A program made the translations under genes and the position numbers. From Minisyncoccota bacterium (GTDB taxonomy: Bacteria; Patescibacteriota; Minisyncoccia; Phycocordibacterales; Phycocordibacteraceae), in NCBI GenBank assembly GCA_041663025.1, contig JBAZRE010000001.1, forward strand, positions 71,585 through 135,584: DNA of 64,000 nucleotides. Reading direction: 5' to 3'. Position 1 is the stretch's first letter. Every line of letters begins with the position of its first letter. Shown here piece by piece: positions 2,651-61,384 of this stretch. The notes under the pieces were generated by a model. The model saw nothing but the letters and a program-made list of their open reading frames with translations, was not told where the DNA came from and ran no database searches.

Positions 2651-4878
2651 AGATTTTTTGTTTTAAGGCGCAATGAATTAGAGACGACCGAAACACTCGA
2701 GAGCGCCATCGCGAGTCCTGCGAAAACTGGGTTCAAGAGTATCCCGAAGAATGGATACAGCAGGCCACTCGCCACCGGGATGCCGACGATATTATACGCG
2801 AACGCCCAGAATAGATTCTGCTTGATGCCGCGCATCGTGAATTTGGAGAGGCGAATTGCCTTCACCATCTTGCTGATGTCGCCATTCAAGAGTGTGATGC
2901 CTGCACTCTCTATTGCCACATCAGTGCCCGTTGCCATCGCGATGCCCACATCTGCCTGCGCGAGCGCCGGTGCATCATTGATACCATCGCCTGCCATAGC
3001 GACGATGTGACTTTGTGATTGGAGCTCTTTGATTTTGTTCAATTTGTCTTCTGGCATTACCTCAGCGACAATTTCATCTATTCCCGCCTGCTCCGCGATA
3101 TACTGTGCCGTTTGTGCATTATCGCCCGTGAGCATGACAACGCGGATGCCGAGCTTATGGAGATTCGCGACTGCCTCCTTTGCTTCTGGCTTTATCGCGT
3201 CAGCCACCATCGCGACAGCAAGTGTCTTCCCATTCGCAATGAGGATAACCGGTGTCTTCCCCTCAGAGGTGTCTTTATCTAGTGACTCAAAAGATGCTCC
3301 AAGTTCTCTCGCAAGTTTTTCGCTGCCAACGTGATATGTCACACCGCCTATTGCCCCGACAACTCCTTTACCTTTCAGCATTTCAAACCCCTCTACCGGC
3401 ATAAACGGAATATTCTTCTCATGAGCATACGAGACAATCGCGTGAGCTATTGGGTGCTCCGATTTGTTATCAAGTGACGCGAGAATTGAGGTGATATCAG
3501 CATCGCTCTTTTCAGAAAAATTCTTTAGTGACACCAACTCCGGTTTCCCTCTTGTTATCGTACCTGTTTTATCAACTACGACTGTGGTTACTTTGTGCAA
3601 TTTTTCAAGTGTGCTCGCATCCTTGATGAGAATACCTTCTTTTGCACCTTTTCCGACACCGACAATAATCGCGGTTGGCGTTGCGAGCCCTAGCGCGCAA
3701 GGGCATGCAATGACCAGCACTCCGACAAACGAGACGAGCCCGAGCGAGAGCGCCTGTGCGAATCCGAGATATGCCGCCCCAACAAAAATCCAGAGCCCAA
3801 GTGAGGCAAAGGCTATGACGAGCACAATCGGCACAAAGACGCTCGAGATCTTATCCGCAAGCGCCTGGATGGGTGCCTTGCTCCCTTGTGCATCTTCAAC
3901 CATTTGAATGATGTGCGCGAGCAGAGTCTCAGAGCCGACCTTCGTTGCCTTGAAGGTGAACGAACCGGTGGTGTTCAGTGTCCCTGCCACGACCTTATCG
4001 CCAACATTCTTCTCTACCGGCACCGGCTCACCAGAGATCATCGCTTCATCTATATAAGATGATCCCTCGGTGATAACGCCATCCACGGGGATTCTGCCGG
4101 CGGGCTTCACGATGATGAGCTCACCATGCACCACTTGCTCTATGGGGATCTCTATCTCGACACCATCGCGAATCACGAGCGCAGTCTTCGCCTGCAAATT
4201 AAGCAATTTTTCAATTGCATCGCCAGTCTTCAACTTCGCCCTCGCCTCAAGATATTTACCGAGCGAGATAAACGCGATGACGACGATCGCCACATCGAAG
4301 TAGGCGACCTCAACATTCACATACGCGCTCAATTGCTCGGCAAATACCGTGACGGCTGTGCTGTAGAGAAACGCCGCGGAGGTACCGATGCCTATGAGTG
4401 TGTCCATGTTCGCCTTGCCATAGCGCACAAATCGGTAGAAGCCGAGTAAATAGGGCTTGCCAACGAAGAAGAGCGCGTAGGCCGCCATAACTGCCAAGAG
4501 ATAACGGAGGAAACCGCTCACTGCCTCTGGAGCAGCAACCACGCGATTGAATTCTACGAGAATATCCCACGACATGATGAAGATGGCGATGACCGCCATC
4601 GGCATGATGGTGAAGATCTTCGTCTTCATTACAGCGAGCTCGGCAAGTTTCTCGCCCTTAGATTGATTCGTAACAAATGAATAGCCGAGTGGTTCTATAT
4701 TTTTAGAAAGTTGTTGTGAGTTCGTTTTTGTTTCATCAAAAACTACTTTTGCCGATTCATTTCCATAATTCACTTGCACCTCCTCAACTCCAACAACTTT
4801 CTTTAAAGACTTTTCAATGATGTGTGCACAGGAGGCACAATGCATGCCGCGAATCCGATAGGTTTGTGTGGTATTCAT
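2647..4878 (-). CDS. copA: Copper-translocating P1B-type ATPase
   Basis: The product carries an N-terminal HMA motif GMHCASCA, the CPC ion-transduction motif, the DKTGT phosphorylation site and GDGINDAP. Length is 743 aa. Confidence 0.95.
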   Translation of the reverse strand: MNTTQTYRIRGMHCASCAHIIEKSLKKVVGVEEVQVNYGNESAKVVFDETKTNSQQLSKNIEPLGYSFVTNQSKGEKLAELAVMKTKIFTIMPMAVIAIFIMSWDILVEFNRVVAAPEAVSGFLRYLLAVMAAYALFFVGKPYLLGFYRFVRYGKANMDTLIGIGTSAAFLYSTAVTVFAEQLSAYVNVEVAYFDVAIVVIAFISLGKYLEARAKLKTGDAIEKLLNLQAKTALVIRDGVEIEIPIEQVVHGELIIVKPAGRIPVDGVITEGSSYIDEAMISGEPVPVEKNVGDKVVAGTLNTTGSFTFKATKVGSETLLAHIIQMVEDAQGSKAPIQALADKISSVFVPIVLVIAFASLGLWIFVGAAYLGFAQALSLGLVSFVGVLVIACPCALGLATPTAIIVGVGKGAKEGILIKDASTLEKLHKVTTVVVDKTGTITRGKPELVSLKNFSEKSDADITSILASLDNKSEHPIAHAIVSYAHEKNIPFMPVEGFEMLKGKGVVGAIGGVTYHVGSEKLARELGASFESLDKDTSEGKTPVILIANGKTLAVAMVADAIKPEAKEAVANLHKLGIRVVMLTGDNAQTAQYIAEQAGIDEIVAEVMPEDKLNKIKELQSQSHIVAMAGDGINDAPALAQADVGIAMATGTDVAIESAGITLLNGDISKMVKAIRLSKFTMRGIKQNLFWAFAYNIVGIPVASGLLYPFFGILLNPVFAGLAMALSSVSVVSNSLRLKTKNL

Positions 4879-4884
4879 AAAAAA

Positions 4885-5148
4885 TTATTTACGCTTCAGG
4901 CGATATACCTTGAGTATCTCACCTATCGCGGTGCGCTCCTTCCCCTTCTTAATCTGGTGCACCACGCAGGTTCCAAGATGCTGCTCCATGAGAGCATCTT
5001 CAATACCACAGAGTGCCTGCTTCACCGCAGAGGTCTGCGTGATGACATCAATACAATAAGAATCCTTCTCGAGCATCTCCTGCAATCCACGTACCTGCCC
5101 CTCTACGATCTTCAATCGCCGAATCAATTTTGCTTTATTTTGTTTCAT
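4885..5148 (-). CDS. csoR: CsoR/RcnR-family copper-sensing repressor; start set at ATG 5148 rather than the upstream TTG
   Basis: Signature LIRRLKIVEGQVRGLQEML plus a Cys...His...Cys metal site. The ATG at 5148..5146 sits directly behind the -10 element and operator. The TTG-extended ORF would include the operator, so it was rejected. Confidence 0.85.
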   Translation of the reverse strand: MKQNKAKLIRRLKIVEGQVRGLQEMLEKDSYCIDVITQTSAVKQALCGIEDALMEQHLGTCVVHQIKKGKERTAIGEILKVYRLKRK

Positions 5149-6139: not shown

Positions 6140-7558
6140 TTATTGTAGCGCGGATCCGGCAGTGAAAAGCGAGTTTTCCGCCTGGTGCGGGGCGGTGATG
6201 TGAATGCCAACCGGGAGCTGCTTCCCTTCCCTTTCTACCGTGCCCATCGGGACAGAGATCGCCGGCATGCCAGTAAGATTTGCAGTCACGGTGAAGATAT
6301 CTTCAAGATACATTGAGAGCGGATCATTCTTATCGCCAAACTTGAATGCTGGAGATGGCGTTGTTGGGAAAGCGATGACATCGCATGATTCAAACGCTTT
6401 TTCGTATTCGCGACGCAACACAGCGCGTGCCGTGTCCGCTTTATAGTAATACGCATCAATATAACCAGAAGAGAGCACGAACGTGCCTAGCAAGATACGT
6501 CGACGCGTTTCTTCACCAAAGCCCTCGGTGCGCGAATTAATATAATCATCAAGGAGAGTCTCCCCACGCGCCGCATGCCCGTAGCGCATGCCATCGAGTC
6601 GTGCGAGATTTGTTGAGACTTCTGCAGGCATGATGACGTAGTATGCCGCGAGCGCAGTGGTGCTCATGGGCAGTTTGATCTCTATAATCTCATGCCCTGC
6701 TTGTGTAAGTTTATCGAGCACCGTATCGAATGCGGCGAGCACATCTTTATCAACGCCCTCGCCAAGTAGATGATAAGGAACTCCTATACGAAGGTGTTTG
6801 GAGATTTTATGCACACCATACAATCCATTTGGAATGGTTGTGGAGTCGAGTGCATCTTTACCGCTAATTGCATCATGGATAATGCGCGCATCAGTAATCG
6901 ATTTAGCCAAAGGACCGATTTGATCAAGCGAGGAGCCCATCGCAATAAGTCCATAGCGCGAGACTGCACCATACGTTGGTTTAAGACCAACAATACCGCA
7001 ATGAGCTGCCGGCTGACGTACTGAACCACCCGTATCACTGCCCAGAGCTGCAATACAAAGATGTGCGGCCACTGCAGCGGCAGAGCCTCCCGAAGAGCCG
7101 CCTGGCACACGCGAAATATCATGTGGATTTTTCGTTGGGCCGAAGGCCGAATGTTCGGTTGATGAACCCATCGCAAACTCGTCCATGTTGGTACGACCGA
7201 GAAATAATGCGCCGGCTTCTTTTAATTTTTTAATAACCGTTGCGTCATAGGTCGCGCGATAATTCTCAAGCATCTTAGACGCGGCGCTCGCAATCTTCCC
7301 TTCTATCAGAATGTTGTCTTTAATTGCGAGCGGAATGCCGCAAAGAAGTTGGGCTGATTCGCCTTCAGTATCAATGCGTTTTTGCGCTGATTCAATAGCC
7401 GCATCATCTGCTTCAAAAATTTCAAGATATGCGTGCAGTTCTGGATTCTTCTCGTGCGCGGCAGCCGCGCACGCATCCCAGAGCTCACGTACTGAGCATT
7501 CCCGCGCGCGGAGCGCGCGGGCAGCTTCTACGATCGTCATTTCATTTAATTTAGTCAT
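6140..7558 (-). CDS. gatA: Glu/Asp-tRNA amidotransferase subunit A (amidase signature family)
   Basis: Amidase signature GGSSGGSAAAVAA and a Ser-cisSer-Lys context. The start was set at MTKLNEMTIVEAARAL so that it overlaps the gatC stop by 8 nt. Confidence 0.9.
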   Translation of the reverse strand: MTKLNEMTIVEAARALRARECSVRELWDACAAAAHEKNPELHAYLEIFEADDAAIESAQKRIDTEGESAQLLCGIPLAIKDNILIEGKIASAASKMLENYRATYDATVIKKLKEAGALFLGRTNMDEFAMGSSTEHSAFGPTKNPHDISRVPGGSSGGSAAAVAAHLCIAALGSDTGGSVRQPAAHCGIVGLKPTYGAVSRYGLIAMGSSLDQIGPLAKSITDARIIHDAISGKDALDSTTIPNGLYGVHKISKHLRIGVPYHLLGEGVDKDVLAAFDTVLDKLTQAGHEIIEIKLPMSTTALAAYYVIMPAEVSTNLARLDGMRYGHAARGETLLDDYINSRTEGFGEETRRRILLGTFVLSSGYIDAYYYKADTARAVLRREYEKAFESCDVIAFPTTPSPAFKFGDKNDPLSMYLEDIFTVTANLTGMPAISVPMGTVEREGKQLPVGIHITAPHQAENSLFTAGSALQ

Positions 7559-50794: not shown

Positions 50795-51178
50795 TTATGA
50801 AAACTGTATGGTGTCTCCGGCATTTAGATACACCGAAGCCTTGCGGCGTGCAGGACGCGTGCCGACGCCACGCTTCGTGCGCATCGCCTTCTTCTTGCCT
50901 GGTAGATTCACAATGCAGATTTTGCGAGGTTCAACCTTGTAAATTTCTTTTACTGCTGCAGCAATCTCAGCCTTGGTTGCACGCTTGGGCACCATGAATG
51001 TATAGATGCCCTTGTCGGTCACGATGAGTGCCTTCTCTGAGAACCATGGTGCACGAAGAATCTCATTGGCCATGCCATCAGCGAGCTTCGTCGTGCGTGC
51101 ATGATGCACTCGAGCAGTTTTTGCTGTTTTCGCTTTTTTTGTCTTCTTTTCTACCTTTTTGTTGCCAAATAGTGCCAT
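50795..51178 (-). CDS. rplW: 50S ribosomal protein L23 (about 35 aa Lys-rich N-terminal extension, or internal start at 51073)
   Basis: EILRAPWFSEKALIVTDKGIYTFMV. Confidence 0.88.
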   Translation of the reverse strand: MALFGNKKVEKKTKKAKTAKTARVHHARTTKLADGMANEILRAPWFSEKALIVTDKGIYTFMVPKRATKAEIAAAVKEIYKVEPRKICIVNLPGKKKAMRTKRGVGTRPARRKASVYLNAGDTIQFS

Positions 51179-53263: not shown

Positions 53264-54463
53264 TTACGCAGTTATTTTAGTTACGACACCGGCACCAACG
53301 GTCTTGCCGCCTTCGCGAATAGCGAAGTGCTGTTGCTCTTCAAGAGCGACTGGCGCAACAAGCTTCACTTTGAAAGTGACTGTGTCACCAGGCATGACCA
53401 TCTCCTTACCCTCTGCGAGGGTCACTTCACCCGTCACGTCTGTCGTGCGGATATAGAACTGTGGCTTGTAGCCAGAAAAGAACGGCGTGTGACGGCCACC
53501 TTCATCCTTGCCCAAGATGTAGACCTCAGCGTCAAAGTCCGTGTGCGGAGTAACCGCTCCAGTCTTCGAGAGAACTTGTCCACGATGCACGTCTTCTTTC
53601 TTGGTACCGCGAAGGAGGATACCAGCATTGTCGCCTGCCTGACCTTCTTGGAGCTGCTTGTTGAACATTTCAATACCAGTGACGGTCGTCTTCATGGTCG
53701 GCTTGATGCCAACGATTTCAACCTCTTCACCAACTTTGATGACACCGCGCTCAATGCGGCCAGTGACCACAGTGCCCCTGCCTTCAATCGAGAAGATGTC
53801 TTCAATCGGCATGAGGAACGGTTTGGTAACTTCACGCTCTGGTTGATCGAAGTATGTGTCCATCGTGTCAACGAGCTCCTTAACCTTAACCGCCCACTCA
53901 TCACTGACGTCCTTAGCATCAAGTGCTTTGAGGCCAGAACCGCGGATAATCGGCGTATTTGCGCCATCGTAGCCCTGCTTTGTGAGAAGCTCGCGAATCT
54001 CCTCTTCGACGAGATCAATAAGATCTGCCTCGGCGACCATATCTACTTTGTTCAAGAAAACGATGAGTTTCTTGAGACCCACCTGCTTTGCAAGCAAAAT
54101 GTGCTCGCGCGTTTGCGGCATAACGCCGTCAGTCGCGGCGACTACGAGAACTGCACCGTCCATCTGGGCCGCACCCGTAATCATGTTCTTGATGTAGTCA
54201 GCGTGTCCTGGCGCGTCGATGTGCGCGTAGTGACGATTCGGTGTCTCGTACTCCGAGTGGTGGAGCGCAATGGTGATACCGCGTGCCTTCTCTTCTGGTG
54301 CACTGTCGATCTTATCAACGCCCTCAACACGCGCGCTGTAGCCCGATCCTGTCAACATTGAGAGGATGTGCAGGATGCTTGCGGTGAGGGTCGTCTTGCC
54401 GTGGTCAACGTGGCCAATGGTGCCGACGTTCATGTGCGGCTTGCTGCGATTAAATTCTGCCAT
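53264..54463 (-). CDS. tuf: Elongation factor Tu
   Basis: [14 protein letters not shown] and NKxD motifs; 399 aa. Confidence 0.97.
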
Positions 54464-54680
54464 ATATCGGATAATTTATTTAATAAATCACGAATAAATC
54501 CGACGTGAGTCGGAACAATCTAAGGCTTGCCGACTCACAGAAGCAGACAAGCCAAAGAGCGACGCCAAGATGCGTTATGAACACTATACGCAAACCTATA
54601 AGGAAATGCAAATGATTGTGGGGAAACACTAAAGCCTACCGCGAGGCAGGCTTTATTGGATGAAGTGGTTTGGCCACCAC

Positions 54681-54878
54681 TTATTCTTCAGGTGACCCAC
54701 GCATCAATTCGGTTACACAGAACACTGCGAGGGCAAGAAACAGTAGAAATCCTACCCGCCACAACCCCATACCGAAATAATTAACTAGAACAAAGAGGAA
54801 CAGGGTCGCTAGTACCGTGATGCTACAGAAATACCGTTTGTTTGTACCAAAGAACAAAAGAACCAATTTATTATTCAT
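54681..54878 (-). CDS. Hypothetical 65 aa two-TM membrane protein between fusA and tuf
   Basis: AGGAGG SD 7 nt upstream; a hairpin AAAGCCU...AGGCUUU just downstream. Confidence 0.45.
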   Translation of the reverse strand: MNNKLVLLFFGTNKRYFCSITVLATLFLFVLVNYFGMGLWRVGFLLFLALAVFCVTELMRGSPEE

Positions 54879-54965
54879 GACTTCCCTCCTCTTTGTAGTT
54901 GAACTTCTGACAAAAACCTCCTCAATCTGACCGTAGCATAGCGCATTAGGTCAGCTTTATCAAAC

Positions 54966-57113
54966 TTACTTACGCGAGGCGATGATATCCGTCGCAATGT
55001 TGTTCGGCACCGTGTCGTAGTGGTCAAATTCCATCGTCATACTGCCGCGGCCTTCGGTCATGGAACGGAGGGTAGTGGTGTAGCCGAACATTTCAGAGAG
55101 CGGCACTTTAGCATGCACGATTTTGTTCTGACCTCGCTCTTCCATACCCTCTATCTGACCGCGCTTGCCTGAGAGATTGCCGGTGATATCGCCCATGAAT
55201 TGTTCTGGAACAATGACGTCAACTTTCATAATCGGTTCAAGAATAACTGCCTTCGCTTTCGAAGCGGCCTCTTGGAAAGCCATAGATGCAGCAATTTTGA
55301 AAGCGATTTCTGAAGAGTCCACATCGTGGAATGACCCATCGTAGAGGTCGACAGAGATGTCCACCATCGGGAAGCCTGCGAGGAATCCTCTCGACATCGC
55401 CTCGCGTATACCCTTCTCCACGGGAGCAATGAACTCTTGTGGAATAACACCGCCCTTGATGTTGTTGATGAACTCGAAGTGATCTTCGCGCGTGATATTT
55501 TTTGAAACTTTCTTATCCGGATCCACTGGTTCCATCTTCTTCATCTTGATCTTCACATGACCATACTGGCCGCGACCGCCGGTCTGCTTGATGTACTTCC
55601 CTTCTGCTTCGGCGGAGCCGAGAATTGTCTCACGATATGCCACCTGCGGCTTACCCACATCAGCGACAACGTTAAATTCGCGCTTCATGCGCTCCACGAG
55701 AATTTCCAAGTGCAACTCGCCCATACCAGAGATAATCGTCTCCCCAGTCTCTTCGTCGGTCTTGATGCGGAAGGTCGGATCTTCATCTGAGAGCTTACGG
55801 AGCGCGATGCCCATCTTCTCTTGATCTGCCTTTGTCTTCGGCTCAATGCGGAGCGACACCACCGGCTCAGGGAATTTAATCTGTTCAAGAATGATCGGAT
55901 TCGCTTCATCGCAGAGTGTGTGCGATGTTTTGGTATCTTTGAGACCAACAGCCGCAGCAATCTCACCAGTGAATACCTGCGCCACTTCTTCACGCTTGTC
56001 AGCCTGGAGGCGCACAATGCGACCAACGCGCTCCTTACCACCAGTGGTCGAGTTATAGACATACGAACCAGCAGTGAGTGTGCCTGAATACACACGGAAG
56101 AAGGTCAGAGCACCAACGAATGGGTCGGTCTGGAGCTTGAAGGCGAGCGCACAAAACGGCTCATCGTCTGACGCATGGCGCTCAACCGGCTCGCCGGTCT
56201 TTGGGTTGATACCGGTGACAGGCTTCAGATCTACTGGAGATGGGAGAAGATCGACGACCGCATCAAGCACCAACTGGACACCCTTATTCTTCAACGCAGA
56301 GCCGGTGAATACCGGGAATATCTCATTGTTAATGACTGCGTTACGCAAGATCGCCTTCAATTCTTCAAGACTCGGCTCTTTGCCGTCCAAGTAGGCGCCC
56401 ATTGCTGCATCATCTTGCTCCACAATGCGCTCAATAAGCTCGGCGCGATATTTCTTCGCATCTTCCAAGAGATTCGCGGGTATTTCACCCTCAACCACTT
56501 CTTCGCCCATGTTCCCCACAAAGGTGTATGCCTTCATGGTGAGGAGATCGACAGAACCCTCGTGTGCTCCCTCTTCGCCAATCGGGATTTGCATGCGAAT
56601 CGCCTTGGGTGAGAGTCGATCGAGGATGCTTGCGTAAGAACGCTCAAAGGACGCACCCGTGCGGTCAAGCTTGTTGATGAAACAGAGACGTGGCACTGCG
56701 GCATCATCGGCATAACGCCAGTTGGTCTCAGACTGCGGCTCGACGCCTGACACGCCGTCGAAGACAACAATAGCGCCATCAAGCACGCGCATCGAGCGCT
56801 GCACCTCGGCGGTGAAGTCGATGTGTCCGGGGGTGTCGATAATATTGAAACGATTTTTCTTCGCAGTATCTTTTTTATCTTTCTCGCCTGTCTTGGTCCA
56901 GAAGCAGGTGATAGCGGCGGAGGTGATGGTGATGCCACGCTCGCGCTCCTGCTCCATCCAGTCGGTGGTAGTCTCGCCCTCATGCACTTCACCGATCTTG
57001 TGCTGACTGCCAGTATAGAAAAGGATGCGCTCACTGCAGGTAGTTTTCCCCGCGTCGATGTGAGCGATGATGCCGAAATTTCGAACTTTCTCTAGTGGGT
57101 AATCTCTGTTCAT
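54966..57113 (-). CDS. fusA: Elongation factor G
   Basis: Begins [14 protein letters not shown]; 715 aa; all five EF-G domains. Confidence 0.97.
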
Positions 57114-57127
57114 AAAGTTTTTAAAAA

Positions 57128-57150
57128 AATAATCCGCCGGCTGGCGGACG
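57128..57150 (-). terminator. Hairpin CCGCC-ggct-GGCGG followed by U7, only 14 nt upstream of the fusA start
   Basis: Minus strand: GGCGUCCGCCAGCCGGCGGAUUAUUUUUUUAAAAAC. Confidence 0.4.
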
Positions 57151-57194
57151 CCGTAGCGCTAAGGAGAGAATAACCCAAATGAGGTGAAAAGAAA

Positions 57195-57228
57195 AGAGGC
57201 GGTGTTTCCATCCGCCTCTCGGAACTCG
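57195..57228 (-). terminator. Intrinsic terminator after the 104 aa gene (GAGGCGG-loop-CCGCCUC + UUUUCUUUUC)
   Basis: Hairpin followed by a U-run on the minus strand. Confidence 0.5.
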
Positions 57229-57236
57229 TCGCAACC

Positions 57237-57551
57237 TTAGGGCTGCACTTCGAAACGAACATTCACTCGTGATAGAGCTTTCTTAAGTAACTTTTTTGTA
57301 GAGTCCAGAAGAGGCTGTGGCGAAGTAACTTTTGCTCCTCCCGCAACAGAACACTCTCCTGTTACATTAACCTGAACGAGTACCTCTTCTGCCCGTTTAC
57401 ACCACCGACAAGCTGGCACATACAACTCCGCGCACCTTTGTTCTAAATTGAAACGAGTTTTTGCTCCCAACAATTTGGCGACTTCATCTAACTCCTTTCG
57501 AAATTCGCTGACATAAGAGCCACCGCTATCCTTCCAAGCATTTCTAGACAT
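57237..57551 (-). CDS. Hypothetical 104 aa protein (start at ATG 57551 with GGGAGG SD); contains a CRWC pair
   Basis: Strong SD 7-8 nt upstream of the internal ATG; the TTG-extended track ORF (to 57596) was rejected. Confidence 0.5.
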   Translation of the reverse strand: MSRNAWKDSGGSYVSEFRKELDEVAKLLGAKTRFNLEQRCAELYVPACRWCKRAEEVLVQVNVTGECSVAGGAKVTSPQPLLDSTKKLLKKALSRVNVRFEVQP

Positions 57552-57658
57552 AGCATTACCTCCCTCTCTCTTTATTGTACTGGCGTTATATACCAAAAGA
57601 CCCGATTTATCTCGATTCTTTTTACCACTCTCTATAAGAAAAGTCGAGTCGAGGTACC

Positions 57659-57685
57659 ATGTTCTAAGGTTAAACCTCAGAACAT
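57659..57685. repeat. REP-like 27 bp palindrome IR1 (ATGTTCTAAGG-TTAAA-CCTCAGAACAT)
   Basis: 11 bp arms with a 5 nt loop; the first of four copies bounding gene cassettes next to the RAYT transposase. Confidence 0.7.
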
Positions 57686-58006
57686 TTGCCCGTGCGATAT
57701 CGTATACTTAAACATGTGGTAACAAACACGATTACAAAACGACGAGATATATCCTGCTCGATATGCGGGAAATCCATGCACGTCGTCTTTTATAAAGACC
57801 GCAGGTATAGGGGCGGACATTACTTTGGGGAAGTACCTGTGTATTCTAAATCCGAGTTGGCGAAAATGCACAGAAGCGGAACTCACCAATCAAAAATTAC
57901 ACCGACGTGGACCATAGATGTGTGTAATTATGATCCAAAACCCCATGCACATTTTGAATATTGGGAGTGCCCGAACTGCTATTGGCATCCGAAATCTAAA
58001 TCTTGA
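57686..58006 (+). CDS. Hypothetical 106 aa zinc-ribbon protein (CSIC...CPNC) bounded by IR1 and IR2
   Basis: Four Cys in two CxxC pairs; the track start is TTG, and an internal ATG at about 57776 is possible. Confidence 0.4.
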   Translation: MPVRYRILKHVVTNTITKRRDISCSICGKSMHVVFYKDRRYRGGHYFGEVPVYSKSELAKMHRSGTHQSKITPTWTIDVCNYDPKPHAHFEYWECPNCYWHPKSKS

Positions 58007-58033
58007 GTGTTCTGAGGTTTAACCTTAGAACAT
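58007..58033. repeat. REP-like palindrome IR2 (inverted orientation: gTGTTCTGAGG-TTTAA-CCTTAGAACAT)
   Basis: Reverse complement of IR1 apart from one base. Confidence 0.7.
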
Positions 58034-58051
58034 CATGCTATGATTTAACCC

Positions 58052-58732
58052 ATGGCGAACAATATCTGTGTTACTGGCGAGTGGTATCACTGCTACAACC
58101 GCGGAACGGATAAAAGAACTGTGTTTGAAGATGTTGCTGATTATGAAAGGTTCCTCACCCTGCTATATGTCAGTAACGGCACAAATTCAATTCGAATTTC
58201 TGATCAACGAACAGGCAGCTTATCTATGTTCCTTGAAAATACATCTATCGACCGCACAGAACCGCTTGTAGAGATTGGTGCGTACGCTCTTATGCCGAAC
58301 CATCCGCATCTAATCTTAAAACAAGTGGCGGATGGGGGCATTGCCCGTTTTATGCAAAAAGTATTCACCGGTTATACCATGTATTTCAATCTTAAAAATA
58401 AACGCACTGGTGCACTTTTTGCGGGTACATATAAATCACGGCACATATCCAACGATCAATATCTGAAACAGGCTATTTCGTACGTTCTGTTGAACCCTGC
58501 AGAGTTGTTCGCAGACGACTGGAAAAAAGGAATGATAGATCTTTCCCAAATAAGAGAGCCTCTCCTTGCCTACCGCTTTTCAAGTCTTTCGGATTTCCTC
58601 GGATCAAAAAGACAAGAAAACAAGATCGTCACAGAGATGGGTGAGTTTTATGAGAAAAAACCAACCCTGGATGAAATGCTCTCGTATGCGATTTCCTACC
58701 ACCAAGAGAACCCCGCAGATACGGAGGTTTAA
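58052..58732 (+). CDS. REP-associated tyrosine transposase (RAYT / IS200-like Y1 HUH transposase, TnpA_REP)
   Basis: HUH motif MPNHPHLIL and catalytic Tyr in ISYVLLNPAE (Y-x3-NP). The stop codon TAA lies in the loop of IR3. Confidence 0.75.
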   Translation: MANNICVTGEWYHCYNRGTDKRTVFEDVADYERFLTLLYVSNGTNSIRISDQRTGSLSMFLENTSIDRTEPLVEIGAYALMPNHPHLILKQVADGGIARFMQKVFTGYTMYFNLKNKRTGALFAGTYKSRHISNDQYLKQAISYVLLNPAELFADDWKKGMIDLSQIREPLLAYRFSSLSDFLGSKRQENKIVTEMGEFYEKKPTLDEMLSYAISYHQENPADTEV

Positions 58733-58741
58733 CCTTAGAAC
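58715..58741. repeat. REP-like palindrome IR3 (left arm degenerate: agatacGGAGG-TTTAA-CCTTAGAACAT)
   Basis: Right arm and loop identical to IR2/IR4. Confidence 0.55.
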
Positions 58742-59509
58742 ATGTGCCGCTTTTTATTTGAAGCGGTGTTTGCTTGAAACGCATTCGTGAGCTCTTCATG
58801 CGAAGGTTGGCGATGTTCTTCTTTAGCCTTACGCATTACTCGACACACCGGACAGTCATCGTCTTCTTTCGAGGAACCTTCGTGTAACCATTCGCTTATA
58901 AGAGTCAAATTTTCTTCAATTTCTGAAACAGAAAGATCTGCTGGTTCAACGTTTCCGTGGATGACTTCATTGTATACCTCACGCGAATCTCGAATGTGGC
59001 GTGAACGTATGATCTCCCAATCTCGGACGGTTGGTTGCAACGCTAATACAGAGGAATTAAGAACTCTCCACTCACCTTTTATTGGAGCAATCCTGCATAT
59101 AAAAACATCTCCTGCGGCAACATCCAAAACACCCGCAGTATCAGCTATCTCATACTGTTTACTGTCATCAATGGCCATCAACATCATGCGGCCATGATTT
59201 GTTGCTTTCACTTCGAAATATCCAAAACGATTGTGTTCCAAAATTGACTTGAGACCCTCGAGGTCCTCGAGGGAAAAATTAAGTGGGTTTGTTCTATGGG
59301 TATAACTAAGCGGCGTTTCGCTTCCCTGATAATGAAAGTTGAAAAGAAACCAATCTAGAAAATATTCGTAAGCATCTTCGCTAATTGGGCCAGTGTCTCC
59401 CGAAAATTCATCCATAGCACGATGGACTTCATTGCCAAACATCCATACATGATCTGGGTGAAGAAAATAATTCAACAAACGTGAAAGTATTTCGACAAGC
59501 ATGCCCATA
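58735..59509 (-). CDS. Hypothetical 257 aa protein (cassette cargo), acidic with C-terminal CPVC
   Basis: Bounded by IR3 and IR4; start set at ATG (MGMLVEIL) with GGAGG 12 nt upstream. No recognised domain. Confidence 0.5.
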
Positions 59510-59535
59510 TTAAAACACAAACCTCCGATGCCAGG

Positions 59536-59562
59536 AGGTTCGGAGGTTTAACCTTAGAACAT
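59536..59562. repeat. REP-like palindrome IR4 (AGGTTCGGAGG-TTTAA-CCTTAGAACAT)
   Basis: 9/11 match in the left arm; the right arm is perfect. Confidence 0.65.
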
Positions 59563-59572
59563 TCTCAGTGGA

Positions 59573-60037
59573 CTACCACGCGAAGTGAGCAAAGGCCTTG
59601 TTGGCTTCAGCCATGCGATGCATCTCGTCCTTCTTCTTAATCGCATCGCCCTCATTCTTAGCAGCGAGCTGGAGTTCGGTGGCAAGTTTGTCTGCCATCG
59701 GCTTGCCCTTCTTGGCACGGGCGGCGTTGATGAGCCAACGGAACGAGAGCGCGAGGCGGCGCGCCTGAGGCACTTCGCGCGGCACCTGATAGTTCGCCCC
59801 GCCGACGCGACGTGAACGCACCTCCATCAGTGGCGACACGTTGCGGAGTGCTGACTCAAAAGTTTCAAGAGGATTCGCACCGTCCTTTTCAATAACCGCG
59901 AGAGCATCATAGACAATAGTGCGCGCTGTATCTTTCTTACCGTTCCACATGATGGCATTGATAAAACGAGAGAGCGTCTCCGAACCGTATTTCAGATCAG
60001 GTCTCCATGTTCTCTTGTGCTTAAGTGGTCGGCGCAT
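59573..60037 (-). CDS. rpsG: 30S ribosomal protein S7
   Basis: SETLSRFINAIMWNGKKDTARTIVYDAL. Confidence 0.95.
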   Translation of the reverse strand: MRRPLKHKRTWRPDLKYGSETLSRFINAIMWNGKKDTARTIVYDALAVIEKDGANPLETFESALRNVSPLMEVRSRRVGGANYQVPREVPQARRLALSFRWLINAARAKKGKPMADKLATELQLAAKNEGDAIKKKDEMHRMAEANKAFAHFAW

Positions 60038-60039
60038 AA

Positions 60040-60447
60040 TTATTTCGGTCTTTTAGCACCATAGCGCGAGCGACCGCGACGGCGCTTATCAACACCACTG
60101 GCATCGAGCTTGCCGCGGACGATGGTGTACTGCACACCAATATCCTTCACACGGCCGCCACGAAGCATCACGACAGAGTGCTCTTGGAGATTGTGTCCGA
60201 TGCCCGGAATATAGGCGGTCACCTCCATGCCGTTGGTGAGCTTCACGCGGGCGATCTTACGAATAGCGGAGTTCGGCTTCCTCGGGGTCTTGGTGGTCAC
60301 CTTGGTGCAAACGCCGCGCTTGAAGGGCGATGGATAGTAGGTCGGGCGATTCTTGAGTGCATTAAAGCCACGGGCCAGCGCAAGCACGCTCGTCTTCGAC
60401 GTGCGATCCTTGCGACCTCTCTTAGAGAGCTGGTTGATGGTGGGCAT
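60040..60447 (-). CDS. rpsL: 30S ribosomal protein S12
   Basis: MPTINQL...PKKPNSA-like...RGGRVKDLPGV-like; 135 aa. Confidence 0.95.
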
Positions 60448-60586
60448 TTTTTTAAGTAAAACTTCCTCCCTTCGCTTGCCTCAGACAAATGCATGAGGAC
60501 ATGCTTTGCCACTCGGCTCACTTGGTAGTAGAAAGCCCGCGAACGCGGGATATGAGCACTATATATAAGGACACGATGAAATGCAA

Positions 60587-61384
60587 CTATTTTTCGTCGA
60601 GAGGCTCACGGTATGGGTCAGTCGAGTATGGCCGAACTGTAGCAGCTGGTTTTATGAATTCGATTTTTGGAATCGCTGGCCCTCCTCCGCTCAGAGCCGC
60701 TGCGGGGCGCGGCGAAGGTCGAACCTTGGGCATGGCGGGCGATGTCATTGTACCCGGGAGATTCGGTGGTACTGAGTTTTTATTCAAATCAATATGGGGT
60801 TCTTCGTGATCTTCAAGTAGTCTGCCGATATTTACTGCTCTCGCTGGCTGTATTTGCGGGACACTAGGCGCTGGTGCAATCTGCTGTTGTATCGGACGAG
60901 GTTGTACTGGTGGAGGTGCCTGAACGATTGGTTGAGCAGGCTTTGGAGGAATAGGTTGAGGCGAGGACTGTTTCGGTTGCGCATATGCATAACTCGGCAC
61001 CGGCGCTTGCACTTGCACTGGTCGTGGTGCGGGCGGTGTTGCTGTTTGTGGACGCTGTTGTGAGGTATTCCCTGCCCCACTTTTCATCTGTTCGCGCAAA
61101 GGAACAAAAATCTTTTGGTTAATCTCTGTCATGATCTCTCGCGCATCTTTGTCTGAGACTCCAGCCGCAATCAATTCTTTCAAAAAATCTTCAGGACCGA
61201 TAAGTCCGAGGAGCATTAGCACATTTAGTGCGGCTATTTTCCCTATCACATCGATGTGAAGACCGAGACGAGTTCCAAGCCCAGAAATAGTCGCTGCGGT
61301 TGTCTTTGCTTCAATTGCTTTCTGCACAGGCAATGGCGACGCATCCATCAACTTTATTAATTCATCATTTGAATAGGAGCGCAT
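60587..61384 (-). CDS. Hypothetical protein with a structured N-terminal domain and a long Pro/Gln-rich low-complexity C-terminal region
   Basis: 265 aa; PxQP-type repeats; downstream of the large membrane protein on the same strand. Confidence 0.5.
   Translation of the reverse strand: MRSYSNDELIKLMDASPLPVQKAIEAKTTAATISGLGTRLGLHIDVIGKIAALNVLMLLGLIGPEDFLKELIAAGVSDKDAREIMTEINQKIFVPLREQMKSGAGNTSQQRPQTATPPAPRPVQVQAPVPSYAYAQPKQSSPQPIPPKPAQPIVQAPPPVQPRPIQQQIAPAPSVPQIQPARAVNIGRLLEDHEEPHIDLNKNSVPPNLPGTMTSPAMPKVRPSPRPAAALSGGGPAIPKIEFIKPAATVRPYSTDPYREPLDEK

Follow-up and report, generated by a model that had tools for sequence, protein, structure and literature searches.

The window analysed here is a 64,000-nucleotide (nt) stretch of contig JBAZRE010000001.1 from a Minisyncoccota bacterium, a member of the Candidate Phyla Radiation (CPR; Patescibacteria), a group with very small genomes in which mobile DNA is believed to be scarce. 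The minus strand of the window carries the str operon, with rpsL at positions 60040–60447, rpsG, encoding ribosomal protein S7, at 59573–60037, fusA, encoding elongation factor G (EF-G) as an open reading frame (ORF) of 715 residues, at 54966–57113, and tuf at 53264–54463. The genes rpsG and fusA are usually adjacent; here they form the right and left core flanks of an islet of about 2.4 kb (about 57200–59572), which separates them and has a GC content of 42–46%, compared with 52–57% in the flanks. The islet is composed of four genes: a 104-residue gene on the minus strand, a 106-residue ORF with a zinc-ribbon signature on the plus strand, a 226-residue HUH/Y1 transposase-like gene (hereafter Y1) on the plus strand, and a 257-residue gene on the minus strand. 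Hairpin repeats occupy the junctions between them. An earlier note on this DNA had interpreted the 106- and 257-residue genes as possible cargo of a module associated with a REP-associated tyrosine transposase (RAYT; REP, repetitive extragenic palindrome), each gene being bracketed by the palindromes of that transposase.

The repeat has a 20-nt core, GAGGTTTAACCTTAGAACAT, which occurs exactly four times in the window, once per intergenic junction of the islet: at 57659–57678 on the minus strand, and at 58014–58033, 58724–58743 and 59543–59562 on the plus strand. The remaining 61.5 kb contain no copy, and 100 shuffles, defining the chance expectation, yielded none. A scan of the window for the broader hairpin class, AGG-N5-CCT, returned one match besides the islet copies, at 50927, which was rejected as a chance match within coding sequence (KVEP). 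In a genome collection that excludes the window's own genome, a 19-mer of the repeat gave six single matches, close to the chance number, which we estimate at about 4. One of these, an exact 19-nt match in a Kaiserbacteria metagenome-assembled genome (L020, 6959–6977), precedes a small ribbon-helix-helix-like ORF and could be a chance or a relic copy.

The four copies, termed hp1 to hp4, form palindromes to different extents. Only hp1 (57659–57685, minus strand, 27 nt, inverted relative to the other three) and hp2 (58007–58033, plus strand) are full palindromes of 26–27 nt, with folding z-scores of −2.9 to −4.0; together they make up perfect 26-nt inverted repeats enclosing the 106-residue ORF. 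The left arm of hp3 (58724–58743, plus strand) has degenerated to the point of being absent and this copy does not fold (z = −0.9); both convergent genes terminate within it, Y1 at …GAG GTT TAA and the 257-residue gene, on the opposite strand, at …ATG TTC TAA. The left half of hp4 (59543–59562, plus strand) pairs with an upstream partner, AAACCTCCGA, at 59519–59528, resulting in a composite hairpin (59518–59562) that overlies the Shine–Dalgarno (SD) sequence of the 257-residue gene, lies 10 nt past the rpsG stop codon and is terminator-like on the minus strand. The proposal that each gene is flanked by palindromes therefore holds for the core, which is present at all four junctions, and for complete palindromes at hp1 and hp2 only.

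The gene between hp2 and hp3 (58052–58732, plus strand) encodes a 226-residue protein with the HUH motif NHPH (H84, H86) and a downstream tyrosine motif, Y144-VLLNP. Residues H86, Y144 and N148 are invariant among 22 family members, and the form Y[VI]xLNP is kept family-wide. A tyrosine motif of the type Y---NP defines the class-2 TnpA_Y1 proteins, which are TnpA_REP-like (Quentin et al. 2018, PMC6006769). The HUH motif and the tyrosine downstream of it place the protein, as judged from its motifs, in the HUH/Y1 superfamily, although its score against Pfam Y1_Tnp (PF01797), 18.6 bits, is under the cutoff of 23. Several close homologs have precomputed PF01797 matches. The score against the NCBIfam model REP_Tyr_transpos is 32 bits, below the cutoff of 80, and a profile of the family matched only ISDra2 TnpA chains in the PDB, across the HUH motif and at a non-significant E-value of 0.3. 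Homologs number more than 600, at about 225 residues each; all those with named hosts are from Parcubacteria, Kaiserbacteria or Paceibacterota, where their source annotation is transposase or RayT. We found no description of this CPR RAYT-like family in the searchable literature.

The family was surveyed in 80 metagenome loci with Y1 homologs (L023–L102), 70 of which have both flanks available. Its canonical unit consists of a palindrome about 30–50 nt upstream of the Y1 start and a matching one at or just past the stop codon. Matching AGG-N5-CCT hairpins are present on both sides of Y1 in 51 of the 70 loci, and hp2 and hp3 of the window, at −725 and −9 from the Y1 stop, have the canonical spacing and represent the upstream and 3′ copies. 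In other Y1 loci, no hairpin copy is farther than about 2.7 kb from the gene. Among 85 unique hairpins, AGG and CCT are kept in 83–85, and stem positions 6–10 are paired in 81–100% of cases with four to six pair types, compared with 40–63% pairing in shuffles and 16–88% (median about 33%) with slid partners; the hairpins had been selected by at least five pairs, which leaves only the outer stem positions as independent evidence. Stem covariation is seen between loci, and the hairpins are well supported as the cognate sequences of the Y1 gene, as had been proposed. The Y1 protein would, by this association, bind or cleave AGG-N5-CCT hairpins. It is the upper end of the stem, AGG-N5-CCT, that is conserved; neither GTAG nor GTGG was found at the hairpin foot in the window or in the 85 family hairpins.

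Several further features of the unit recur across the family. The Y1 stop codon falls within the hairpin in 30 of 61 loci; its register is fixed (…GAG GTT TAA, …AAG GTT TAA or …AAG GTT AAA CCT TGA), and many Y1 proteins end in EV, KV or KVKP owing to the reading frame closing inside the 3′ hairpin; the recognition site and the Y1 C terminus appear to co-evolve. Of 53 upstream hairpins, 14 have a −10-like box directly next to their right arm, compared with 1 of 58 downstream ones. This box is extended −10-like, CCTTG-A/C-TATAAT or TATACT (L030, L032, L035, L038, L040–L044, L051 and L055), and the upstream hairpin overlaps the Y1 promoter, an arrangement that could permit autoregulation. Tandem duplications of hairpin arms, partial or complete, are common beside canonical copies (L015, 1565–1585; L088, about 4690–4705; L091, about 3920–3935; L027, 4466/4509) and are also found downstream of Y1 in L039, L052 and L069; either slippage or recurrent rounds of nicking and joining may have left them behind.

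The islet is conserved in close relatives of the window. The Logan contig L001 has a gene order and four repeats identical in arrangement to those of the window. A diverged relative, L015/L016, whose S7 is 95% identical, has the same gene order with all four repeats at the same junctions, and its islet is orthologous to that of the window. Synonymous divergence (dS) between the window and L015 is 0.4–0.9 for the islet genes, with a value of 0.88 for Y1, and the ratio of nonsynonymous to synonymous divergence (dN/dS) is lowest for Y1 (0.087), followed by the zinc-ribbon gene (0.11), the 257-residue gene (0.16) and the 104-residue gene (0.29, first 44 codons). Given these low ratios, all four are real genes under purifying selection. 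The hairpin cores differ from those of L015/L016 at 2 of 80 positions across the four copies. The outer pair of hp1, A-T in the window, is G-C in L015, a compensatory change, and the composite hairpin at hp4 is present in L015 too, with a different loop. The hairpins are either under strong constraint or evolving in concert.

Y1 is present in one copy in the window and, to judge from these comparisons, is vertically inherited and single-copy. Y1 genes that are 90–95% identical mostly have one flank in common, that is, they represent the same locus in incomplete genomes; two loci contain two Y1 copies within 6 kb. In L053, a Y1 protein 68% identical to that of the window and a near-identical hairpin are located beside fusA, and in L025 the Y1 gene adjoins tuf. 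Sites of the family (L030, L035, L038, L040, L052, L024, L078 and others) are typically between essential housekeeping genes: other lineages keep class II aminoacyl-tRNA synthetase, DnaE, GyrB, RNase III, NusB and TrmD as neighbours, in arrangements such as DnaE–class II aminoacyl-tRNA synthetase–Y1–GyrB, RNase III and NusB, TrmD, or an amidotransferase. These neighbours are retained between lineages whose orthologs are only 44–66% identical.

The 106-residue ORF (57686–58006, plus strand) has the pattern CxxC…YRGGHYFG…EYWECPxCYW, an isoelectric point (pI) of 9.6 and eight histidines, in agreement with its earlier description (CSIC…CPNC, WECPNCYW, His-rich). It is a real gene, with a true start that is probably GTG at 57716, resulting in a 96-residue product translated from a leaderless mRNA; this start is favoured because of the N termini of homologs and a TATACT −10 box 7 nt upstream. 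Its 21 homologs are 69–133 residues long, and in them YRxGHYFG is invariant and CxxC and EYWECPxC are nearly so. The homolog in L012 (83% identical) is located in the rpsG–fusA spacer with HicAB and a Panacea-type toxin–antitoxin (TA) pair, and the L002 homolog (73% identical) shares that spacer with a PaaX-like gene, whereas distant homologs follow Fic or ParE, or adjoin RadC, restriction–modification (RM) genes or ClpP. In the approximately eight distinct zinc-ribbon contexts outside the window lineage, there is neither a Y1 gene nor an AGG-N5-CCT hairpin. A C-terminal tail of about 24 residues in the L012 and L002 proteins is missing in the window and L015, exactly where hp2 begins, and around this gene the window is homologous to L012 from right after hp1 to about 9 nt before hp2. 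The zinc-ribbon gene of L002, a locus without Y1, adjoins a 190-residue PaaX_M-like gene, which is enclosed by a different 22-nt repeat (6375–6396 and 6999–7020) with a GCGGCCGC palindrome (GCTGATGCGGCCGCATTTGCTA).

The 257-residue gene (58735–59508, minus strand) is co-oriented with the str operon. It too is a real gene, and it ends at 59508; the previously assigned end at 59509 was out of frame by one base. Its product is acidic (pI 5.1) and carries CPVCRVMRK, as described before, within a conserved C-terminal pattern, DDDCPxCRVMR. A word-based search returned five homologs and a full profile search 17 full-length relatives, and the N-terminal approximately 150 residues are common to about 245 proteins, of which ten were scanned and some possess TPR repeats or a C-terminal SEC-C motif. 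The SEC-C motif is a SecA-type metal-binding domain; the 257-residue protein itself had no Pfam match and, having CPxC only, falls short of this motif (PF02810). The five lineages in which the gene could be placed (the window, L015/L016, L103, L104 and L105) all have it in the rpsG–fusA interval, co-oriented with the operon. In L103–L105, the homologs (52–56% identical) immediately precede fusA, and neither Y1 nor hairpins accompany them. On this distribution, the 257-residue gene is best described as a lineage-specific resident of the str region and not as transposase cargo. A long conserved palindrome of the type CTGTTCCAT…ATGGAACAG (L103, about 180–225; L104, about 80–125; L105, about 255–300) separates the end of a PaaX-like gene (…RKHF.L…) from the 257-residue homolog; it may be an operator, suggesting joint regulation of the two genes.

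The 104-residue gene (57237–57551, minus strand) encodes a basic protein with a CRWC motif and has a strong SD sequence (GGGAGG) as well as promoter-like and terminator elements of its own. It is within the islet, with a GC content of 46%, and outside the hairpin-bounded stretch. Its homolog in L015 is 59–61% identical over the first 44 codons and at the same position, and this synteny, together with the shared low-GC islet, bears out the suggestion that the gene is part of the same island. It is followed by the native fusA leader (57132–57219, minus strand), which contains two terminator-like hairpins, at 57132–57149 and, after the 104-residue gene, at 57192–57219, and is similar to the region upstream of fusA in L103 and L104.

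Searches of profile libraries and of the PDB gave no significant match for the 106- and 257-residue proteins, which match no known family or solved fold, in line with the absence of any familiar motif in the earlier note. For the 106-residue protein, the best Pfam match was Zn_ribbon_3 at E = 0.011, under the cutoff, the NCBIfam matches were weak ones to LapB alone (E = 0.14–0.65, 9–11 bits, far under the cutoff), PADLOC and PHROGs gave none, and the best PDB profile match had an E-value of 0.15. The 104- and 257-residue proteins had nothing significant in Pfam, NCBIfam, PADLOC, PHROGs or the PDB. Our guess is that the zinc-ribbon and 257-residue proteins may be small nucleic-acid- or ribosome-associated accessory proteins. 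Viral contigs of IMG/VR contain no relatives of the three families searched, the zinc-ribbon family among them, leaving a phage origin without support, and Rfam returned nothing relevant over 56900–60600.

The rpsG–fusA spacer is a hypervariable site in this CPR clade (Candidatus Paceibacterota), with different content in each relative. Membrane ORFs, TA modules and a PaaX-like gene are among its other occupants. The core genes are readily matched, with EF-G homologs in L002, L012 and L053 that are 71–90% identical to the fusA product of the window and S7 homologs in L002, L012 and L016. We found no description of this hotspot in the searchable literature. Duplicates of the rpsG 3′ end, 16–19 codons long and 88–94% identical, are present in L002 (5756–5799), L012 (2342–2389) and L023 (1238–1294), and a degenerate one in L053 (about 3745–3775). 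These remnants occupy the fusA-proximal edge of the inserted DNA and, in L023 and L053, directly adjoin the Y1 hairpin; they suggest repeated insertion at the rpsG 3′ end, with the gene restored. The islet of the window contains no rpsG 3′ or fusA 5′ remnants of this kind. A short duplicate of the fusA 5′ end, 12 codons long, was observed in L104 (1080–1115), and in L092 about 28 nt of the 5′ end of a 412-residue gene are duplicated beside the Y1 hairpin (3903–3930 and 5104–5131). The fusA–tuf spacer of the window (54464–54965), of about 500 nt and 44–46% GC, encodes a 65-residue hydrophobic ORF (54681–54878) and possibly represents a further small insertion within the str operon.

Homologs of the 106-, 257- or 104-residue proteins were found in 0 of the 80 Y1 loci, and neighbour-gene clustering revealed no accessory family travelling with Y1, only syntenic housekeeping genes. 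Y1 and the unclassified genes co-occur only in the window lineage and in the close relative L015/L016; outside these, homologs showed no link to RAYT or REP elements, and several of them are found in the rpsG–fusA interval without Y1 or hairpins; the proposed RAYT-associated cargo module is thus not supported. Because they occupy this interval in relatives without the transposase, the genes are regarded as neighbours and not cargo. The earlier note had said that its proposal would fail if the homologs were widespread housekeeping genes never linked to RAYT or REP elements: they are indeed unlinked to Y1 and hairpins elsewhere, but they are rare accessory or lineage-specific genes. We therefore favour, with a probability of about 0.6, the reading that a vertically inherited, RAYT-like Y1 gene has spread its hairpins locally through an accessory islet whose other genes are independent residents. 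The Y1 enzyme, of the approximately 225-residue CPR family, would recognise AGG-N5-CCT hairpins in single-stranded form, with hp2 and hp3 as the canonical pair, and the zinc-ribbon and 257-residue genes would be independent occupants of the spacer, not brought by Y1. The extra copies hp1 and hp4 would most likely have been seeded into adjacent spacers by Y1 nick-and-join activity, or by hairpin–hairpin recombination, and we infer that the Y1 enzyme placed them. In an islet so dense in genes, only intergenic sites would be tolerated, giving the appearance of bracketed cassettes.

Several observations weigh against this reading and would fit a hairpin-delimited cassette system, in which Y1 would recombine at AGG-N5-CCT hairpins and capture, excise or exchange segments, making the hairpins an HUH analogue of attC and hp1–zinc-ribbon–hp2 a cassette. 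The limits of homology between the window and L012 are near hp1 and hp2, the perfect 26-nt inverted repeats, as such a system would also predict, and L053 has the hairpin and Y1 with the zinc-ribbon block absent. Among the orthologous loci L078, L088, L091 and L092, an extra 1.2-kb segment between two hairpins is present in L092 only, the other three having a single hairpin at this place, and the segment 3′ of the Y1 hairpin is different in each of the four. Small ORFs are enclosed by extra hairpins in about ten other Y1 loci, among them L067, in which six hairpins surround four ORF-containing intervals and two Y1 copies, and the frequent partial tandem duplications of hairpin arms fit the same scheme. 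Nevertheless, the zinc-ribbon and 257-residue homologs elsewhere are hairpin-free, so that no cassette has been seen to move with its hairpins; a distal hairpin is present in only one of the four variable 3′ segments; and hairpin orientations around segments are inconsistent, with inverted copies in the window but direct ones in L092. In other loci, the ORFs between extra hairpins lack Pfam matches, allow no recurrent cargo type to be defined and may not all be genes. We consider a cassette system of this kind unlikely, and hold it similarly doubtful that a domesticated, CPR-specific Y1 uses hairpins to insert, delete and swap short segments near essential genes, with the zinc-ribbon block as one cassette.

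The remaining explanations concern the function of the hairpins or of the neighbouring proteins. The 257-residue protein, and perhaps the zinc-ribbon subfamily, might be lineage-specific translation- or ribosome-associated factors kept in place for co-expression with rpsG and fusA: all five placed 257-residue lineages have the gene between rpsG and fusA in the operon's orientation, the zinc-ribbon relatives that are at least 73% identical (L002, L012 and L015) occupy the same spacer, the 257-residue N-terminal domain recurs in some SEC-C-motif proteins, and a low-confidence model of this protein hints at a barrel resembling the oligonucleotide-binding fold. This is improbable given that the spacer varies among relatives in a hotspot-like manner (TA modules, PaaX-like gene, membrane ORFs), that distant zinc-ribbon homologs are in TA, Fic or RM contexts, and that both families are very small, with structural hints under significance. 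A role of the hairpins mainly at the level of RNA or transcription, as terminators, insulators, mRNA 3′-end stabilisers or a translational switch, would explain why four of four copies are at gene boundaries, including hp3 between convergent genes, why the hp4 composite is terminator-like directly after rpsG and overlies an SD sequence, and why −10-like boxes abut the right arm almost exclusively in upstream hairpins. We regard it as quite improbable, since hp1–hp3 have no T-tract and hp3 is unfolded, the 20-nt sequence itself is conserved beyond its structure, there is no Rfam match, and the hairpin class is found only where Y1 is present, on both its sides family-wide. Least probable is a single conserved functional module of the Y1, zinc-ribbon and 257-residue proteins. 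The three genes are adjacent, L015/L016 keep the arrangement, and all three are under purifying selection, but neither partner is present in any of the 80 Y1 loci, both are found without Y1 in several lineages, and the genes are on different strands with separate promoters; the co-occurrence data largely refute such a module.

The Y1 gene and its hairpins correspond in part to known REP/RAYT systems. As in RAYTs, whose groups have been defined (Bertels et al. 2017, PMC5581495), and REPtrons, Y1 of the window combines the HUH and Y---NP motifs, is single-copy in the window, keeps its position between relatives and is flanked by cognate palindromes with extra copies nearby. It differs in that the hairpins of the family have, in place of a 5′ GT[AG]G foot, an invariant AGG-N5-CCT top, that palindromes are not dispersed (0 in the other 61.5 kb, a count covering the 64-kb window only), that the ORF often closes inside its own hairpin, that the protein scores 32 bits against the cutoff of 80, and that the hosts are CPR bacteria. 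Compared by features, not phylogeny, the protein resembles TnpA_Y1 subclass 2.1/TIRYT in its length (median 238 residues in that subclass), its NH.H and Y[IV]HLNP-type motifs and a C-terminal extension past the core; however, subclass 2.1 is reported to be without REP-like hairpins, some members having terminal inverted repeats (PMC6006769), whereas the family of the window has clear flanking hairpins.

A minimal unit of hairpin, Y1 gene and hairpin, with recognition of single-stranded hairpins presumed for the present family, is also the plan of IS200/IS605 elements, which have subterminal left-end and right-end hairpins, and their ISDra2 TnpA is the best, albeit non-significant, PDB match of the Y1 family. 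TnpA of IS200/IS605 has about 150 residues and a Y---Q motif (PMC6006769). The window protein has 226 residues and Y---NP; an active insertion sequence does not fit because Y1 relatives occupy orthologous positions, and identification as an IS200-type element was rejected on these three grounds. In the loci compared there was also no sign of multicopy spread. By analogy, the hairpins are reminiscent of integron attC sites, being imperfect palindromes predicted to fold as single strands between short genes, with hairpin-bounded segments that differ between relatives, but the islet has no IntI tyrosine recombinase, attI or Pc promoter, and its gene orientations are mixed.

The value of the analysis is mostly corrective, in that two conserved, unclassified proteins are to be treated as residents of the rpsG–fusA spacer and not as transposase cargo. 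Beyond this, RAYT-like Y1 genes form a large CPR family marked by a distinctive hairpin, AGG-N5-CCT, which often includes the gene's own stop codon, and these genes are positioned between essential housekeeping genes, flanked by locally variable segments. If the Y1 enzyme drives the variability of these segments, it would provide streamlined genomes with a way of turning over their genes, with the hairpins as a new class of HUH substrate.

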